Below are positions 1 through 62,101 of a DNA stretch of 64,000 nt, one piece after another (position 1 is the stretch's first letter; every line of letters starts with the position of its first letter). The stretch covers positions 1 to 64,000 of the IMG/VR virus record IMGVR_UViG_3300025121_000035, one strand, 5' to 3'. The notes under the pieces are model-generated. The model ran no database searches. It was not told the origin of the DNA and saw only the letters and a list, made by a program, of their open reading frames with translations. Source of the DNA: a virus. The translations under genes and the position numbers were made by a program.

Positions 1-102
1 GGACTGATTTCGCAGTATAAACAAAAAGACGGTGAGGCGTTGACAATAGTCAAGTCTATGAAACGTTGAAACACATTAATATTTATTTGATGTGTAGTTC
101 AT
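1..102 (+). mobile_element. Right end and omega-RNA-like 3' portion of an IS200/IS605-family element (truncated by window start)
   Basis: About 89% identical (11 mismatches in 102 nt by my count) to 60523-60624; ends in hairpin + GTAGTTCAT, as does the right end of the tnpB element at 52167. Confidence 0.8.
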
Positions 103-478
103 TAATTTGTTGATAATAACCATTTAAATATTTTATTATTTCTTCGTCTGTACTCCTCATGTAATATCCATATTTATCTGGTTCTCCTCTTGGTAAATGT
201 TCATAAGTTTGCAAATAACCATAAATTCCTACATTTTTACCATCAATCACAATCATTCGTAATATTAAAGTCTCATTATTACAAGAACAAGAAATTACTG
301 TTAAATTTTTAAGATGATTATAAAATTGTTCACTATTTTCTATAAATTCAGTTTGTTCATAATCAAAAGGGTAAATCCAAGATCCTTGTACATTATAATG
401 TCCATTAACTTTAATTGTAGAAGTAGATGGTATAACTGATTTAAAATGTTCATCTAAATATTCTTTAACTTTTATCAT
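83..478 (-). CDS. Hypothetical protein; last codons and stop are supplied by the IS right end
   Basis: ORF track; C-terminal NELHIK* lies inside the 1-102 element. Confidence 0.6.
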   Translation of the reverse strand: MIKVKEYLDEHFKSVIPSTSTIKVNGHYNVQGSWIYPFDYEQTEFIENSEQFYNHLKNLTVISCSCNNETLILRMIVIDGKNVGIYGYLQTYEHLPRGEPDKYGYYMRSTDEEIIKYLNGYYQQINELHIK

Positions 479-695
479 TATTCATTATTTTTTCTATTTT
501 CTTTTTTCTTCTATTTGCTAATGGTTCAAAATATTCAACACGTGATAATGATTTATCTGTAAATGTAACCCACATTATTTCAACTTCCTTAAATATCTTA
601 TCAACAATAAAAATATCATCTTTTATATGAGTAAATTTTTTCATTGTTTCTTCTGTCATAACTACTTTATCACCTATTCCATATTTATTTTTCAT
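465..695 (-). CDS. Small hypothetical protein with C-terminal RxxKI motif
   Basis: ORF coupled to its neighbours; ends RRKKKIEKIMN. Confidence 0.65.
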   Translation of the reverse strand: MKNKYGIGDKVVMTEETMKKFTHIKDDIFIVDKIFKEVEIMWVTFTDKSLSRVEYFEPLANRRKKKIEKIMNNDKS

Positions 696-1479
696 AATTG
701 TACCACAATGTTTCTATTTTTGTTTTTCTTCTATTCATACCATCCCTTGTTTTAATTTCATAGTCATATTTATTCCAACCATTTTCAACTAAAACATTAT
801 ATAAATCATTATCATAACCACTTATTAAAATTTTAGATTTACATTTAATAACAGTATTTAATAATTCTATATGTTGTTCATCTGTCATATCGTGAGGGTA
901 TCTTGCACTTGTCCTTGTACTATGCACATAGGGGGGATCTAAATACATAAATACATCATCATTATCATATTTATTAATAATATGCATAGCGTCTCTATTT
1001 GTTATTACAACATTAGATAATCTAATATGATATTCTTCTAATCCATCAATTATAGATAAATAATCTGAAGTAGCTTTACTTAAATTTCTTCTTACTAATG
1101 TACTAACAGAAAATCCACCTGTTGAATTAACACTTGAACGATTTACATAAAAATAATAATATGCTCTATCTTCCATCGATAATTCTTCTTTCAATTTTGC
1201 TTTATACTCTTTATTTAATTTTTCAATATATGGTGTCATATCTAGTTTAAATTTTAATCTTTTAAACATTTCTTCATCAGATAATACTTTAAATAATGAA
1301 TATACATTATCATAAATATCATTATAAATTTCAATTGGTGCTTGTTGAAGAAATAATACAGTTGCTGAACCACCATAAGGTTCAAGATATACTTTATATC
1401 CTTTTGGTAAAAATGATTTAATTACTGTTGATAATTTACCTCCTTTACCACCAAAGTATCCAACTATTTTTGTCTTCAT
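685..1479 (-). CDS. dam: Dam-like (D12 class) DNA adenine methyltransferase
   Basis: YFGGKG, EPYGGS, YNDI and catalytic LDPPY motifs. Confidence 0.9.
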   Translation of the reverse strand: MKTKIVGYFGGKGGKLSTVIKSFLPKGYKVYLEPYGGSATVLFLQQAPIEIYNDIYDNVYSLFKVLSDEEMFKRLKFKLDMTPYIEKLNKEYKAKLKEELSMEDRAYYYFYVNRSSVNSTGGFSVSTLVRRNLSKATSDYLSIIDGLEEYHIRLSNVVITNRDAMHIINKYDNDDVFMYLDPPYVHSTRTSARYPHDMTDEQHIELLNTVIKCKSKILISGYDNDLYNVLVENGWNKYDYEIKTRDGMNRRKTKIETLWYNYEK

Positions 1480-13994: not shown

Positions 13995-14041
13995 GTGAAT
14001 TACTCATCTACACTAAGTTATGGTTTTCTTTGACGAATCAT
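13995..14041 (-). mobile_element. 47-bp fused left-end/right-end IS200/IS605 miniature
   Basis: TTTAT|ATGATTCGTCAAAGAAAACC...GTAATTCAC; same 5' motif and target pentamer as 60260. Confidence 0.6.
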
Positions 14042-14107
14042 ATAAAAAGATGTAAAATAAATTAATATATAGATTTATAAAATATATTATTAAAATAAAT
14101 TATTAAA

Positions 14108-40741: not shown

Positions 40742-40859
40742 GATAATCAATAGTTAAAGAAAACCATTAAATATTTAATTTAATGGACGATTTTTATCAA
40801 AACAGGCTTCAATTATTTAATATATAAAATAAAACAAAAAAAATAATAAATTAGAAATT

Positions 40860-41045
40860 ATGGAAGAACGTATAACATTAGATCAACTTATTGAATTAGT
40901 CGAAGAAGTTAGAAAAGATTATGATAAGTTTTATGATAAAGGAGTTAAAGCTGCCGCTACTCGTCTTAGAAAAGGATTACAAGATATAATCAAAATATCG
41001 AAAGATATGAGAGTTCAAGCAATCGAACACAAAAAATCATTATAA
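40860..41045 (+). CDS. Histone H1-like Hc1-family nucleoid protein
   Basis: KGVKAAATRLRKGLQ..K..KDMR motif typical of Bacteroidota Hc1-like proteins. Confidence 0.75.
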   Translation: MEERITLDQLIELVEEVRKDYDKFYDKGVKAAATRLRKGLQDIIKISKDMRVQAIEHKKSL

Positions 41046-41132: not shown

Positions 41133-41184
41133 GTCAAATTCATCTATTAAACTAAAGATTTATCGATTTTCTTTGACGTATAAT
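41133..41184 (-). mobile_element. Orphan IS200/IS605 left end
   Basis: TTTAT|ATTATACGTCAAAGAAAATC-hairpin-GATGAATTTGAC. Confidence 0.7.
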
Positions 41185-41209
41185 ATAAATTATACTCTTT
41201 GATAAGTAA

Positions 41210-51574: not shown

Positions 51575-52012
51575 TTATTTTATATCAATTTTTTTAATTG
51601 GTTTATTTTCTTCCATTTTTTCATACTTATTTAAAGTAAGTATTAATATACCATTTTTCATTTCGGCATCAATCTTATCTTTATCTACATTTTCTGGAAT
51701 ATAAAAACTCTTTTCAAATGATGATTTATAAAATTCTTTTCTGATATAATTTTCATCATTTTGTTCATTTGTTTTTTCAACATCACTTTTAATTGTGATT
51801 CGGTCATCGTTAATTTCAATATCAATATCTTTTTTATCAAAACCTGGTAAAGATAATGATATTTCATAGTTTTTTTCATTTTCTTTAGTATTAGATAATA
51901 CTGAACCAAAGAAATTGTTTTCAAACAACTTAAATGGATTTCCACCAAAAAATTCATTTGCGAAGCTATCCATAGTTGGTAATACTGAATTTTTTAATCT
52001 TAATAGTGTCAT
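51575..52012 (-). CDS. Hsp20/alpha-crystallin small heat-shock protein
   Basis: LPGFDKKDIDI, RKEFYKSSFEKSF.IPENV, AEMKNGILILTL. Confidence 0.9.
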   Translation of the reverse strand: MTLLRLKNSVLPTMDSFANEFFGGNPFKLFENNFFGSVLSNTKENEKNYEISLSLPGFDKKDIDIEINDDRITIKSDVEKTNEQNDENYIRKEFYKSSFEKSFYIPENVDKDKIDAEMKNGILILTLNKYEKMEENKPIKKIDIK

Positions 52013-52166: not shown

Positions 52167-53511
52167 ATGAACTACAACTAAACTAAAGATTTAGTTGTTT
52201 CTTGGGCTGAACCTGTAACCAGTTTCATATCTCCACAAGCGTATATTTCTGCTGTTCCAGCAGTATTATTTTTTACAAAACTAAACTTTTTAATATTTGT
52301 TGCTGCATTTTGATCCCTATTGTGTTTTGTATTACAATTAGGACAAATCCATTCCCTATCAGATAATTTCAAATTTGATTTAATATACCCACAACAAGAA
52401 CACATTTTAGAAGAAGGTTCAAATTGACCAATTCTAATGATATTACAACCATACCATTCACTTTTGTAATCCAAATACAAATTGAAATTACTAATTGATA
52501 TATCAGATAATGATTGTGATAATTTATGGTTTTTAATCATATTAGATGGTTTTAATGTTTCTAAACATATTGTATCATATGTGGTTACTAATTCTTTTGA
52601 TACTTTATGTAAAAAATCATTCCTTTTATTTGAAACTTTTTCATGAATAATAGATAATTTTTTTACATATTTTTTTCTATTATTTGATCCTTTTACTTTT
52701 TTTGAAACTTTCCTTTGAATCCTTTTTAATTTTTTTAATGACTTTTTAAGATTCTTTGGATTTTCAATTTCAGTTCCATTTGATAATACAGCAAATGTTT
52801 TAATTCCCAAATCAATTCCAACTGCTTTATCTTCACTAATTGGTTTCTTTTTTGGTAATTCACTTGGTATTTCTACTAAAATAGAAATGAAATACTTACC
52901 TGTTGATGTTCTTGTTATTGTTGATTTTTTAGTTATTCCTTCAAATATTCTATCAATTTTAATTTTAATTGATGATTTGAACTTCGGTATATCTAATTTT
53001 TCATTTTCAAAATCCACATAAGTATTTTGTGGTATTCCAAATGATTGTTTATTATCTTTTTTTGATTTGAACTTTGGAAATCCACCTTGCTTTTTGAAAA
53101 ACTTTGTATATGCGTTATCAAGATTTTCTAAACTATATTGTAAAGATTGGCTATTTACTTCTTTTAACCAAGATGTTTCTTCTTGTTTTTTAAGAATTGG
53201 TAAATCTTTTTGTATATCAAATCTTGATAATCCTACACCAGTTTCTTGATATGTTTTGTTTTTTTTGTTCAACGCATAATTGTATATCCATCTTGCACAA
53301 CCAAAATGTTGATGTATCAATTCTTTTTGAATTGAATTAGGATATATCCTATATTTGTAAGTTTTCAAAATCATATCTATTATACTATATATTTTAGAAT
53401 TAGTTTCATTTTTTTCTAAAATTATTTTCAACTTTAGAATAATTATATATAATTATTATTACAATTCATCTACCTAAACTGAAGATTTAGGGGATTTCTT
53501 GTAAAAGAATA
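52167..53511 (-). mobile_element. IS200/IS605-family (IS1341-like) tnpB-only element
   Basis: Left-end hairpin AAGAAATCCCCTAAATCTTCAGTTTAGG..GATGAATTG; right-end hairpin ending GTAGTTCAT; no tnpA. Confidence 0.85.
52178..53374 (-). CDS. tnpB: TnpB RNA-guided nuclease
   Basis: YKYRIYP HTH, GIDLGIK (RuvC I), ICLE, CSCCG..CPNC Zn finger, HNRDQNAA; start MILKTYKY preferred. Confidence 0.95.
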   Translation of the reverse strand: MILKTYKYRIYPNSIQKELIHQHFGCARWIYNYALNKKNKTYQETGVGLSRFDIQKDLPILKKQEETSWLKEVNSQSLQYSLENLDNAYTKFFKKQGGFPKFKSKKDNKQSFGIPQNTYVDFENEKLDIPKFKSSIKIKIDRIFEGITKKSTITRTSTGKYFISILVEIPSELPKKKPISEDKAVGIDLGIKTFAVLSNGTEIENPKNLKKSLKKLKRIQRKVSKKVKGSNNRKKYVKKLSIIHEKVSNKRNDFLHKVSKELVTTYDTICLETLKPSNMIKNHKLSQSLSDISISNFNLYLDYKSEWYGCNIIRIGQFEPSSKMCSCCGYIKSNLKLSDREWICPNCNTKHNRDQNAATNIKKFSFVKNNTAGTAEIYACGDMKLVTGSAQETTKSLV

Positions 53512-53551: not shown

Positions 53552-54433
53552 ATGATTTCTAAATATAATGATTTTCAATTATTGAATGAAGCAATACTAA
53601 ATGAAGAATTTGATTTTAATCAAATTAAAAATTCTATAAAAAATGTTGCCGATAAAAATAAAGTATTAAACTATTTAATCAATAAATTTAACAAAGCCAA
53701 AAATCAACCTTTTAAAAAACATATAGCTACATTATTAATTGCGGTTTTCTTAATAAATTTCGGATTAAAATCAAATAAGTGGGCAAATAGATTATCTGAT
53801 GAAAAAATTCAAGAATTAACTACTAAAATAGCTGCACAAGAAATTTTATCACAAGAAAATATGGTTCAATTTTTTAATACTAATCTATATACAAATGAAA
53901 TAGATAATGTAGATGAATCAGAACCTCGTAAATCTATATTTGATAATCAGGTATTTGTAGATGCGACAAATTTACATACATCAGAAAAAGCAATAAAACT
54001 TATTAAAAAACACGAAAAGTTAAGATTAAAAGCTTATAATATAGGGGATAACAGAATTACAATTGGATATGGTCATGCTGAACCAATTCAAACATCAAGA
54101 TATAAAATAGGTGATAGAATAACTAGGGAACAAGCAGAAAAATTATTTAAAAAGGATTTAGAAATTGCAGAAAAAGGAATTAAAAGAATGTTTGTTCGTT
54201 GGAAAAGTGCCGGAATTAAGATAGAATTAACACAAAGTATGTTTGATGCTATGGTATCTATGACATTTAATATGGGAGTTTATGGAATGGCTACAACTAA
54301 TTTTATTCAATACATTAAACAAGGTGATTTTGAAGCAGCAGCCGATTCCATAAAAACAACAAAAATAAACGATAAGTTTCCTGGTTTAGAAAATAGACGA
54401 GAAGATGAATATGAATTGTTTATAGGTACTTAA
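53552..54433 (+). CDS. GH24 lysozyme-like protein with CTS-like N-terminus
   Basis: IKKHEKLRLKAY..ITIGYGH..FDAMVSMTFNMG..GLENRREDE; N-terminus MISKYNDFQLLNE. Confidence 0.85.
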   Translation: MISKYNDFQLLNEAILNEEFDFNQIKNSIKNVADKNKVLNYLINKFNKAKNQPFKKHIATLLIAVFLINFGLKSNKWANRLSDEKIQELTTKIAAQEILSQENMVQFFNTNLYTNEIDNVDESEPRKSIFDNQVFVDATNLHTSEKAIKLIKKHEKLRLKAYNIGDNRITIGYGHAEPIQTSRYKIGDRITREQAEKLFKKDLEIAEKGIKRMFVRWKSAGIKIELTQSMFDAMVSMTFNMGVYGMATTNFIQYIKQGDFEAAADSIKTTKINDKFPGLENRREDEYELFIGT

Positions 54434-56689: not shown

Positions 56690-57463
56690 TTAAAAAACCA
56701 ATAGATTATTTTTAATAACTTCTTTTGCCAAGTTTAAATAACTTACAGCACCTTTTGATGCTGCATCAGAAACAATTACTGGTTTTCCAAGACTAGGTGC
56801 TTCACAAATTTTATTATTACGCTGTATAACACTTTTGAAAACCATATCATGAAAGTGTTTACGAACATCATTAGCAACTTGGTTAGATAAATCTAATCGT
56901 GGTTCATACATTGTAAGTAAAAATCCCTCAATATCAAGTTCTGGATTTAAACGATTTTGTACAAGTTTTATGGTATTTAATAATTTACCTAAACTTTCTA
57001 ATGCAAAAAATTCACATTGTACAGGAATAATAACTGAATCTGCGGCAGTGAGTGCATTTATTGTAAGCAAATCTAAATTTGGAGAACAATCAATAAAGAT
57101 AAAATCATAATTATCTTTAACTTTATTAATTAATATTTTTAATATTTCTTCCCGATTTGGCTTATCAAGAAATTCTATATTAGCAGTAGATAAACTTATA
57201 TTTGAAGGTATGATATCCATTCCATCAATTTCAGTTTTTAAAATAATTTCTTTTGGATTAATATCTTCAATAATACTATCATAAATACTTATTTTGATTT
57301 CTTTAACATCAAATCCTATACCTGATGTAGAATTTGCTTGTGGATCAGCGTCTATTAATAATACTTTTTTATCTAAAACAGCTAAACTAGCTGCTAAATT
57401 TATTGCGGTTGTAGTTTTTCCTACACCTCCTTTTTGGCTTGATATTGCTATAACTTTTCCCAT
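56690..57463 (-). CDS. parA: ParA/Soj partition ATPase (chromosomal type)
   Basis: QKGGVGKTTTAINLAA, IDADPQAN, IDCSP, PVQCEFFALE, EAPSLGKP. Confidence 0.92.
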   Translation of the reverse strand: MGKVIAISSQKGGVGKTTTAINLAASLAVLDKKVLLIDADPQANSTSGIGFDVKEIKISIYDSIIEDINPKEIILKTEIDGMDIIPSNISLSTANIEFLDKPNREEILKILINKVKDNYDFIFIDCSPNLDLLTINALTAADSVIIPVQCEFFALESLGKLLNTIKLVQNRLNPELDIEGFLLTMYEPRLDLSNQVANDVRKHFHDMVFKSVIQRNNKICEAPSLGKPVIVSDAASKGAVSYLNLAKEVIKNNLLVF

Positions 57464-58774: not shown

Positions 58775-60870
58775 TCATAATTCTATTTGGCTTAAAACTT
58801 CTAAACATAATTCGTTAGGTACAATGGATCTTTGTTCAGCTCCTTTTAGTCCTTGTGTTCCTGTTTTACTTCCTCTTGGTGCAGCAATGTGACAAGTCAT
58901 ACCATTTTTACACATTGGTCTAGGTGTCCATAATTCATTATTAGTCCAGATATCTGTCGGTTTCATGCGATCATCCCCATACTGACAATATGTAACTGTA
59001 TTTCTAATTGGTAAATCTATCATAATAGGGAATTTTCTTAACATACCTCTAGGGTTTTCGATGTACCAATATTTAGGTTTAAAATAATTAATTAATTCTA
59101 TTGTTTTTTCAACTAATTTATAACCAATTAAAGCTGTTTCAGATTTAGGTTCTCTTTCTTTTGTCCAATGATGTGATACAGAAGCAATTGAGAAGGACGT
59201 ACAGTTATGTACTATTAAATTTTTAACAGTATATGTATTGTCTTCTTCTACTTCTAAATTATATGTTTTTAATGATACATTTAATTTTTCTTTTTTATCA
59301 AATTGTAACCATATGTAATTATTATCAATATCATATTTTATATTTTTACAATTTATACTAAATTTAATATTATAAAGTTTATTTGTTCTATCATCTATAA
59401 TCAAAGTTGTTGGTATTTTATATACTTTATTTATACAATATTGAATACCGTATGCTAATTTTTCACTAGTTGTTGATAAATTATATTTTCCTTTTTTTAT
59501 AGTATGACCATCAGAATCTATATAACCGTTTATAAATGAAATTAAATATTCATTTGGTAAATTGAATATATCAGATGTTAATTCTTTATTTGGTGATCCT
59601 ATTCCAAATCGTTTAAAATAATGATATAATTCTTTATTATAAAAAATAAATTGGTTTACCGTTTTTTTAGTTTTAGATAAATTATATTTATTAAAAACTA
59701 ATTTTATTTTATTTTCTAAATAATCTGTTTTTTTTTTATTACAACATATATTAACTTCTTCACACCCATTATCTTTATGTATACTTATCCACCCATCACC
59801 AATAAATCTTCCTACAATATACCAAAAATTAATATCATTAATAGGTAGGGTATTAATTAATTTTTTAATATTATTTTGTTTTTGGTATTGGTTACTTATA
59901 CCTTGTTCATAATAACAACCTTTGTATATTGGTAGTGATTGTTCTTTATTTAAAGGAATAGCAACGTATGGTGATTCTATAATTGCTTTACTTTTATTTT
60001 TACTTATATTTACTTCTATATCACCTACATTAACCCAATCTGGTTCTGTAAAATAATATTCATATTTTCTTAATTTATTATTCCATTTACGTTTTTTGTA
60101 TTTAATATAATACGGGTGATTTCCAGTTACTATTGTGTTTTTAGTTTGTCTTGTATTAAAATTATAACAATCATTAGAATGATTTTCATATATTTTTGTT
60201 ACTTTTCTAAATCTATTTTTATGTGTTAATACTTGATCACCAACTACAATATTTTTTATATGTTCCGTCAAAGAAAACCATTAAATCTTCAGTTTAATGG
60301 ATGAATTTGACTAAAATGGACTTTAAATATTTAATATATATATATAATAATTAAATAAAAGTTCTTTGAAATGATTTAATGGTTTTGATCTACAAACCTA
60401 GATCAAGTAAAATCATTGAGGTTCAAGTATGTAAATACTTGATAGTTAAGTATCTATACGAAAACCAAGGTAGATGCAAAATATAAAAAATGTTTAAAAA
60501 TATTTTTTAACTGTGGAGCGAGTGACCGAATTCGCAGTCTAAACAAAAAAACGGTGAGGCGTCAACATTAGTTGAGTCTATGAAACGTTGAAACACATTA
60601 ATATTTATTTAATGTGTAGTTCATTTCTTTATAACCATTATTTGTTAATACTAATTCATCTTCTCCAAAACAAGGCGGAGATGCCCATATAATATCTGGT
60701 TGCCAGGGAACTTTATTAACATCAAATTCTAATAAATCAACTGTATAATCAGTTTTAAATTTTTCTAAATAGTCTGATGAAAATACTTCATAACCAAGTT
60801 CTTTTGCAGCTTTCCCTATTGATTTAGTACCAGCAAATAATTCTAGTACTTTTATTTTATGAATTTCCAT
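58775..60870 (-). CDS. C5-cytosine DNA methyltransferase with LAGLIDADG intein (59204-60672), interrupted by a 365-bp element into two ORFs
   Basis: ELFAG, WASPP|C...IVHN|CTSFS, IENP; LAGLIDADG-like IVGRFIGDG and FINGYIDSDG. Confidence 0.88.
60260..60624 (+). mobile_element. Non-autonomous, ORF-less IS200/IS605 element: left end + promoter motif + structured RNA + right end
   Basis: TTTAT|ATGTTCCGTCAAAGAAAACC-hairpin...GTAGTTCAT; exact removal restores intein ..GYKEIKNIVVGD.. Confidence 0.85.
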
Positions 60871-61094
60871 TTATTAATATCCTTCTTATTTTTGCATAAA
60901 CTTCTAAGTCTCCTGGCTTTTCAGTATCTATAACTACTTTGTCTACTAGAATGGATATTATTAATTTTAAATCTTCGACTGTATTAACTAAATCCCAATT
61001 AATATCATACGTTTTAATCACTATGAAAAATTATTTTTTATAATATAAATAGTTTCTTATTTATAATATAGACAATAAATTATAATTTGTTTAT

Positions 61095-61144
61095 ATTGTC
61101 CCTTAAAAGAAAACCGTTAAATTGTTAGTTTGTGTGTAGTTCAT
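61095..61144 (+). mobile_element. 50-bp fused left-end/right-end miniature
   Basis: TTTAT|ATTGTCCCTTAAAAGAAAACC...GTGTAGTTCAT. Confidence 0.65.
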
Positions 61145-61639: not shown

Positions 61640-61644
61640 GTTTG

Positions 61645-62020
61645 TGGAAAAGCAGGGAATCGAACCCTGGTGTTTACTAAATTAAAATTAATATTCTACA
61701 TGCTTATAATATTTTTTAATAATTCGATACTTTACAAAATATTCAAACATACAAGTATAAAATAATTGTTACACTATAAAATATCGATTTCACAATCATT
61801 ATCAATAAGTTTTTGGTTAATTTCTATTACACTGCTACAAGTTCACCTTCTTGTAAAACAGATTCGTTTCCAAATCCGACAGTCAATGCGTCACTAATCT
61901 TATTAGCCGCATTAAATAAATTCGCGTTTGCGTTTATTGTTTTGCCTTTTTTAAAGTGTTCTGACAAACACTACATGCTAATTAACCCCGTTTTAATAAG
62001 TCGATGCCATTTTCTTTCCC
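61645..62020 (-). ncRNA. ssrA: tmRNA
   Basis: 5' GGGAAAG pairs with 3' CTTTTCC-A (G3.U alanine determinant); CAGGG-TTCGATT-CCCTG T-arm; GGCATCGAC 5' motif; ATAAAC-GCA resume codon at 61931. Confidence 0.92.
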
Positions 62021-62101
62021 ATAAAATTAAAGAACTTTTCACTATATATTATATATAGTAAATTAAAAAAGTTTATTTTTTCTAAATACAAATATAATAA
62101 A

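Follow-up and report, generated by a model that had tools for sequence, protein, structure and literature searches.

IS200/IS605-type insertion sequences (IS) are described as excising without a scar and inserting after a transposon-adjacent motif, and the palindrome-associated transposable elements (PATEs; Dyall-Smith et al. 2011, cited in PMC4853749) as carrying omega RNAs that are acted on in trans (Meers et al. 2023, 10.1101/2023.03.14.532601). IStrons combine a group I intron with an IS605-type element to which it is fused (PMC10690162, PMC13521648). For inteins, a gene-breaking model has been set out for free-standing homing endonucleases, in which a split intein arises when a mobile element invades the gene of an intein (Dassa et al. 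2009, PMC2677866). Natural split inteins with a very short N-fragment do exist, as an earlier note on the present locus had stated; that of PolB16 OarG is 15 residues long (PMC10189870). Here we describe a locus on IMG/VR virus record IMGVR_UViG_3300025121_000035, an 84,043-bp viral contig of which the first 64 kb (hereafter the window) were analysed, where a 365-nt protein-less element interrupts the intein of a C5 cytosine DNA methyltransferase gene. We consider it probable that this is a recent knockout of the phage methylase by a scarless, PATE-like derivative of the IS200/IS605 family.

The methylase gene lies on the minus strand and is read as two open reading frames (ORFs). The upstream one (N-ORF, 60598..60870) encodes 90 residues ending ...CFGEDELVLTNNGYKE-MNYTLNKY*, a tail also given as ...ASPPCFGEDELVLTNNGYKE-MNYTLNKY*, in which the last eight codons and the stop (60598..60624, MNYTLNKY*) are derived from the element. 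The downstream one (C-ORF, 58775..60271) has a TTG as its start and reads MTEH-IKNIVVGDQV..., where the TTG and the three codons after it (MTEH, 60260..60271) again belong to the element and continue into the remainder of the intein in the same frame. The insert (60260-60624) is 365 nt long, which is not a multiple of 3, and its presence therefore shifts the frame of the methylase gene. When it is taken out, a single frame of 576 residues results; the boundaries can be moved by up to 2 nt (AT|AT) with no change in this result. The earlier note had described the stop eight codons into the element, the in-frame TTG supplied by its left end (MTEH-IKNIVVGD) and the exact restoration of the frame on deletion of 60260-60624, and all of these were reproduced.

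A database search with the C-half returned 502 relatives. The nearest three (P0002, P0003 and P0004) are uninterrupted proteins of 585, 582 and 585 residues, with 75, 72 and 68% identity to the C-half, respectively, and the rejoined protein aligns to them with no gap across the junction, where ...NNGYKK-IKDI... stands opposite ...NNGYKE|IKNI... from the two pieces in the window. The locus encoding P0003 (L025) is syntenic with the window, and the region of the transfer-messenger RNA (tmRNA) adjoins the methylase gene there too. Its DNA is continuous from the equivalent of 60620 to 60259, with approximately 78% identity on either side, and this empty site carries TTTAT on the opposite strand exactly at the insertion point. 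Because of the gap-free alignment to P0002–P0004 and the empty site in L025, we regard the interruption as real and not as an effect of chance. A near-identical uninterrupted allele was not found, either among the 502 matches (none above 75% identity) or in records G001 and G002.

The motifs of the interrupted gene identify its predicted product as a short C5 cytosine DNA methyltransferase. The N-extein (60673..60870, minus strand; 66 residues) carries motif I as LELFAGTKS and ends ...WASPP, while the C-extein (58775..59203, minus strand; 142 residues and a stop) begins with the +1 Cys and contains ENPRG, so that the exteins add up to 208 residues. The intein, of 368 residues, follows ASPP and ends just ahead of the PPC motif's catalytic Cys, which doubles as its +1 nucleophile. 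Residues 1–16 (CFGEDELVLTNNGYKE; 60625..60672, minus strand), starting with the nucleophile Cys1 (CFGED...), align without a gap to P0002–P0004. Residues 17–368 (59204..60259, minus strand) contain block B as TGNH, two LAGLIDADG-type motifs (IVGRFIGDG and INGYIDSDG) and blocks F and G, which end in ...NLIVHN|C. The intein matches LAGLIDADG_3 (PF14528, E 4.4e-8) and exceeds the cut-off of the NCBIfam model intein_Cterm (TIGR01443); its match to Intein_splicing (PF14890) is weak and below the cut-off, because the C-half is without the N-terminal part. As judged from these features it is a class 1 intein with a LAGLIDADG endonuclease. Both halves of the gene are open and Cys1, LAGLIDADG and HN|C are intact, as the earlier note had stated.

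Intein-less relatives of the methylase were found at six viral loci, all of them matched via the C-extein part of the query. The ORFs at four of the six are 208–221 residues long and read ...WASPPC(T/Q)xxS.... All three of the intein-less homologues tested (L014, L015 and L017) exceeded the cut-off of PF00145 (C-5 cytosine DNA methylase), with 27.8–34.6 bits against 22, and the window's own two halves gave no match to this family. We note that, after ...LIIDDRT (approximately 59320-59330, minus strand) and following the second LAGLIDADG motif, the window's intein is 12 residues shorter than those of P0002–P0004, P0008 and P0013; this gap may represent decay of the homing endonuclease.

The insert itself (60260..60624) has the organization of a protein-less IS200/IS605-type element resembling PATEs. 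Its RNA-sense strand is the plus strand; there TTTAT (60255-60259) stands immediately before it, and its last bases are TTCAT. At the left end is a subterminal hairpin (60267..60311, plus strand; GTCAAA..CCATTAAA-loop-TTTAATGG..TTTGAC), whose stem covaries among the copies of the element and with the left end of an IS resident in the same genome, described below. It is followed by a promoter-like, TATA-rich stretch and then AAAAGTTCTTTGA (60330..60369, plus strand), a layout like that before the 5' end of the tmRNA. The right end is a structured, omega-RNA-like RNA module (60487..60624, plus strand) predicted to consist of a small hairpin, nested central stems, a terminal hairpin (60593-60617) and the tail AGTTCAT. 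The termini (ATGTTC.../...GTTCAT) form no convincing inverted repeat; the element thus has subterminal imperfect palindromes at both ends and is without terminal inverted repeats. There is no protein-coding gene in it: the longest ORFs wholly within the insert are 35 and 30 residues long, and a tblastn search of all copies with the resident TnpB gave no remnant of tnpB (best E 2.3).

The TATA-rich stretch followed by AAAAGTTCTTT (60330-60369, plus strand) is 82% identical over 39 nt (E 3.2e-4) to the region upstream of the tmRNA (62029-62067, minus strand), from which we infer that it is oriented along the plus strand. The earlier note had reported, on the gene strand, a GAACTTT..TATATA motif like other promoters in the window. 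The motif is indeed present on that strand, at 60364-60341; its reading as a promoter found little support: it occurs five times in 84 kb, only one of the four other occurrences is within 100 nt upstream of an ORF start, and it fits the opposite strand at least as well, matching the tmRNA upstream region in that orientation. A scan for sigma-70 promoters found 29 promoter-like sites against 25 expected, and no terminator was found on the gene strand within the insert. The tmRNA itself (61642-62020, minus strand) matches Rfam RF00023 with 60.4 bits against a gathering score of 47, and was not called by ARAGORN.

Copies of the element were sought by BLAST and by pattern scans. Seven were found, all in contigs of one metagenome. 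Apart from the copy in the intein, full copies are present in L020 (= L008) and L024 (= L007); the others are a right-end fragment at window positions 1-102, fragments at the contig starts of L023 and L022 (= L009), and a right-end-only copy in L021. All seven end in ...GTAGTTCAT (also given as ...GTGTAGTTCAT), beyond which the flanks are unrelated and diverge. TTTAT stands directly before all three full copies and before a 50-bp mini copy (61095-61144), where the chance of finding it at a given place is about 0.0085 from base composition. No clear target duplication is seen; the 2-nt AT ambiguity leaves a 2-bp duplication formally possible. The comparison of filled and empty sites indicates insertion 3' of TTTAT, with a scarless empty site. 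Three of the copies are at contig ends, which fits a repeat at which assemblies break. A blastn search of the insert against 50,697 phage records gave no match.

Every one of the seven copies is antisense to the gene on its right-end side, and the copy in the intein is the sole mid-gene insertion among those seen. The full copy in L008/L020 is intergenic, and that in L024 lies 17 codons before the end of a 158-residue frame. The copy at the start of the window (1..102, plus strand) consists of right-end sequence, the contig beginning within the element; a 131-residue ORF (83..478, minus strand) has its tail truncated there, and the conserved protein that it encodes is shorter at the C-terminus than its homologues by about 4–35 residues. 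In the mini copy (61090-61144 including its TTTAT, plus strand), the start of the left end is fused directly to the last part of the right end, and the copy terminates in ...GTGTAGTTCAT. Located between genes, at a distance of 220 bp from the start of the methylase, it looks like an internally deleted element. In L021 (positions 1-287), the last 140 nt of the element come right after a 61-residue ORF that reads into the module, and both the left end and the promoter-like part are absent.

The contig also carries a resident TnpB-encoding IS (52167..53510, minus strand, with the left boundary approximate). Its tnpB gene (52178..53374) encodes the domains HTH_OrfB_IS605 (PF12323), OrfB_IS605 (PF01385) and TNB (PF07282). 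It is a complete TnpB-only IS without TnpA, situated between an ORF at 51575..52012 and a gene at 53552, and its right end is 11 nt past the tnpB stop, which means that the omega RNA must overlap the coding region. The left-end hairpin of this IS has the same loop as the insert, TCTTCAG, on a covarying stem; its right-end hairpin covaries with that of the insert, and the tail AGTTCAT is common to both. A covariance model of the last 137 nt of the insert (R1) matched the resident IS at 52167-52311 (minus strand), covering the 3' end of tnpB and the IS boundary, with 33.1 bits and an E value of 2.4e-5 per genome (7.2e-7 in a 2.5-kb search). An omega RNA would be expected at this position; most of the match comes from the flanking parts of the model, because the length of the central domain differs. 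The insert and a TnpB-carrying IS of the same genome thus appear to have their ends in common. The TnpB IS of record G001 was also considered as a relative and is unrelated to the insert.

The plus strand of the insert corresponds to the tnpB sense strand. Folding of the whole element gave −94 kcal/mol (z −6.29) for the plus strand versus −74.9 kcal/mol (z −3.35) for the gene strand, and several G-U pairs of the right end exist on the plus strand only, being C-A on the other. The right-end consensus has 26 pairs, two of them with compensatory changes. Relative to the methylase gene, the RNA-sense strand of the element is therefore the antisense one. In strand, in position and in homology to the resident tnpB 3' end, the module fits an omega RNA of TnpB. 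The description in the earlier note, of an IS-derived, RNA-bearing element that cuts the intein after residue 16, is supported.

The window belongs to an AT-rich genome (contig GC content 22.9%, with A and T each near 0.385). CheckV puts the completeness of the 84-kb contig at 12%, a hint that the phage is very large. Near-identical DNA is present in groundwater and soil metagenome runs, part of the stretch being found in 13 of the 14 rows listed, from 6 studies, and pieces at least 99% identical to it occur in all four runs compared (as Logan contigs). Error-free Logan contigs from two of the four independent runs (X1 and X3) cross the left junction and reach 37 nt into the element. The right junction is covered from 60597 onward, that is 28 nt inside the element, in X1, X3 and X5, a length below the 31-letter rule of the comparison. 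The joint of an empty site (60259->60625) was not listed in the contigs of the four runs, although rare variants are lost from Logan contigs. We conclude from the contigs over the junctions that the insert allele is genuine and occurs in several of the samples. A misplacement of the repeat into the gene during assembly, for which one might cite the multiple copies and the three of them at contig ends, can be dismissed in view of these independent contigs over the left junction (X1 and X3, 37 nt in) and at the right end (X1, X3 and X5, 28 nt).

From these results we propose the following course of events. In a large AT-rich groundwater phage, a protein-less derivative of the IS200/IS605 family, which has kept a left end, an internal promoter-like stretch and a right end with an omega-RNA-like RNA, and in these respects resembles PATEs, would have inserted into a phage gene. 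Insertion would have been by single-strand 'peel and paste', directly 3' of TTTAT on the plus strand and without a scar, between codons 16 and 17 of the 368-residue LAGLIDADG intein, which lies before the catalytic Cys of a 208-residue C5 methyltransferase. Since the element is antisense to the gene, it would not be spliced out of the mRNA; the eight added codons and stop, and the shifted frame, would end the precursor after 82 native residues, so that the methyltransferase is most likely not made. That the two halves look intact would be because the event is recent or the gene dispensable. Given a Y1 TnpA in trans, the element could be excised precisely, with the gene restored. A compatible TnpB, together with the RNA of the element and guided by the 3' flank (60625 onward), might cut empty alleles flanked by TTTAT, and such cutting would keep or spread the insert. 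Mobility and RNA-guided retention would follow from what is known of the family (Meers et al. 2023); TnpA was found in none of three incomplete records. A simple recent knockout, which the earlier note had offered as its fallback, fits the observations best.

Several points weigh against this interpretation. Hairpins like that of the left end also occur alone in intergenic DNA (40753, 41133-41189 and 14020-14048), so that this part could be a general phage motif. The centre of the right-end RNA is unlike that of the resident IS (38 versus 62 nt in the R1 alignment), and for this reason the resident TnpB was not assigned as the cognate one. No Rfam family was found for the RNA of the insert: a scan of the window at gathering thresholds returned the tmRNA only, and a permissive scan of 60150-60750 gave five matches at chance level, none of them to an intron or an IS RNA. 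The Y1 TnpA (PF01797) was found in none of the three records searched, whose CheckV completeness is 3–23%. An arrangement that still functions would also be expected to show an insert allele in several samples, and gene halves in which no decay is visible. No RNA run is among the listed runs that contain the stretch.

The alternative that survives best is that the insert is kept as a reversible switch of the methyltransferase, with excision by TnpA restoring the gene in part of the population. Scarless excision is described for the IS200/IS605 family (Meers et al. 2023, 10.1101/2023.03.14.532601), removal restores the frame exactly and the gene halves are undamaged, and these points speak for such a switch. 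The failure to find TnpA in any of the three records speaks against it, as does the lack of any sign of selection, as opposed to chance, behind the arrangement, and we consider this reading unlikely.

The earlier note had raised a different outcome, rescue of the methylase by trans-splicing. In such a reading the insertion would have created an atypical split intein in one step: the N-piece, made up of 66 extein residues, 16 intein residues and 8 residues from the element, and the TTG-started C-piece would trans-splice to give an active methyltransferase. Both ORFs are open with all catalytic motifs intact; the cut falls where it does in the natural atypical PolB16 OarG, whose N-fragment has 15 residues (PMC10189870); and, in keeping with the gene-breaking model (Dassa et al. 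2009, PMC2677866), the invader brings both a stop and a start that is in frame. The occurrence of the insert allele in several groundwater and soil runs is in keeping with it, although presence in several samples fits a dispensable gene and a rescued gene alike. The want of a Shine-Dalgarno sequence is no counter-argument, being usual in this phage: the median duplex with a generic anti-Shine-Dalgarno sequence is +1.4 kcal/mol over 70 ORFs. A test of the TTG on this basis, in which only 7% of the contig's genes were as good as the TTG site, is uninformative, because those genes rarely have such a sequence.

The predicted structure around the start is less favorable. On the gene strand, the TTG (60269-60271) falls within the outer stem of the left-end hairpin. 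In a 65-nt window around the start, the local minimum free energy is −12.2 kcal/mol, against a median of −2.95 kcal/mol for the starts of the 70 ATG-started ORFs of at least 100 residues on the contig, none of which (0/70) is as stable; and there is no ATG nearby that could serve instead. Antisense transcription from the element is plausible, with the RNA antisense to the gene and the promoter-like motif fitting the opposite strand. Apart from the window's own, the 119 homologues listed are all single proteins, mostly full length, and none shows the split. Typical split inteins are not known to have a whole homing-endonuclease domain on the C-fragment, as this one does. With its start in a hairpin, its arrangement seen in no relative and L025 uninterrupted, the locus does not look like a natural split intein, and the support for one consists of two open frames and a plausible split position. 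We therefore regard rescue of the methylase by trans-splicing as very unlikely. The nested arrangement is not in itself evidence that split inteins can arise by a new route; that a mobile element may give rise to one has already been published (Dassa et al. 2009, PMC2677866). Among the papers listed in a literature search, none describes a transposon inside an intein; in PMC4853749 the words transposon and intein both occur, in separate sections.

Removal at the RNA level, with the element acting as an intron or in the manner of an IStron and being spliced from the mRNA so that the gene is in effect unbroken, has the exact in-frame restoration in its favor and is scarcely tenable otherwise. 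The structured strand with the homology to the resident IS is antisense to the gene, no group I or group II match was obtained from Rfam even at E <= 10, and the full copy in L008/L020 is intergenic; these three observations together exclude it. Group I introns characteristically end in a 3'-terminal G, and by eye none of the three equivalent placements of the boundary provides one. A U at the 5' splice site with a G at the 3' end was likewise looked for by eye in all frame-preserving placements, and none was sensible. By these features the insert appears to be neither a group I intron nor an IStron.

Other genes of the window were noted in passing. A D12-class N6-adenine DNA methylase (688-1479, minus strand; PF02086, E 1.5e-18) gives the phage a second methylase, which would stay with it if the C5 enzyme were lost. 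A ParA/Soj-type ATPase is encoded at 56693-57463 (minus strand; PF13614, E 2.6e-67). An Hc1-type histone-like gene (40860-41042; PF07432, E 1.2e-17) lies between two inverted hairpins resembling the left end of the element (40753-40826, plus strand, and 41133-41189, minus strand); after the first of them, upstream of the gene, comes a TATA-rich stretch. The gene and its hairpins may form an element that carries cargo; alternatively, the hairpin is perhaps a regulatory motif of general occurrence.

A recent knockout by an IS200/IS605 derivative would make this locus a natural nest of three selfish elements in a groundwater phage, namely a mini-IS in an intein in a methylase gene, and as read here suggests that protein-less elements of the IS605 type with omega-RNA-like modules are active in large groundwater phages. 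The defined pair of ORFs is a direct test case for a gene-breaking origin of split inteins. If the halves do not splice, the locus is a common case of an accessory gene knocked out by insertion; if they do, elements of the IS605 type would be a route to split inteins, and inteins would be tolerated landing sites for transposons in phage genes.

Among the systems described, the insert is most like the PATEs and other non-autonomous IS200/IS605 elements with an omega RNA (PMC4853749; Meers et al. 2023). Like them it has no protein gene and carries subterminal hairpins at both ends; it is inserted after a short motif (TTTAT) without duplication, and its removal restores the site exactly; and the RNA of its right end is related to a TnpB IS of the same genome, with insertion biased as to strand. 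It differs in residing in a large phage, in having a promoter-like stretch of its own in common with the leader of the phage tmRNA, in the failure to find TnpA in any of three records, and in being known from sequence alone. IStrons (PMC10690162, PMC13521648) are similar in that an IS605-type element lies in a gene whose frame is restored on its removal, whereas the present insert has no match to a group I core and is antisense to the host gene, so that it would not be spliced from the mRNA.

The comparison with split genes runs along the same lines. In the fractured genes of Dassa et al. (2009, PMC2677866), as here, a mobile element lies within the intein-coding region of a phage gene, and its ends provide a stop upstream and a possible start downstream. 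There, the invader is an endonuclease gene co-transcribed with the downstream piece, while here it is an antisense, non-coding IS derivative; the split falls after residue 16, away from the usual endonuclease site, the intein has retained a LAGLIDADG domain of its own, and neither conservation nor start signals point to function. The atypical split intein of PolB16 OarG (15 + 168 residues; PMC10189870) likewise breaks after about 15–16 intein residues. It consists of two expressed genes that were shown to trans-splice, in contrast to the present pair, which is inferred from its DNA, has an N-piece with eight additional residues and depends on a TTG of doubtful use as a start.

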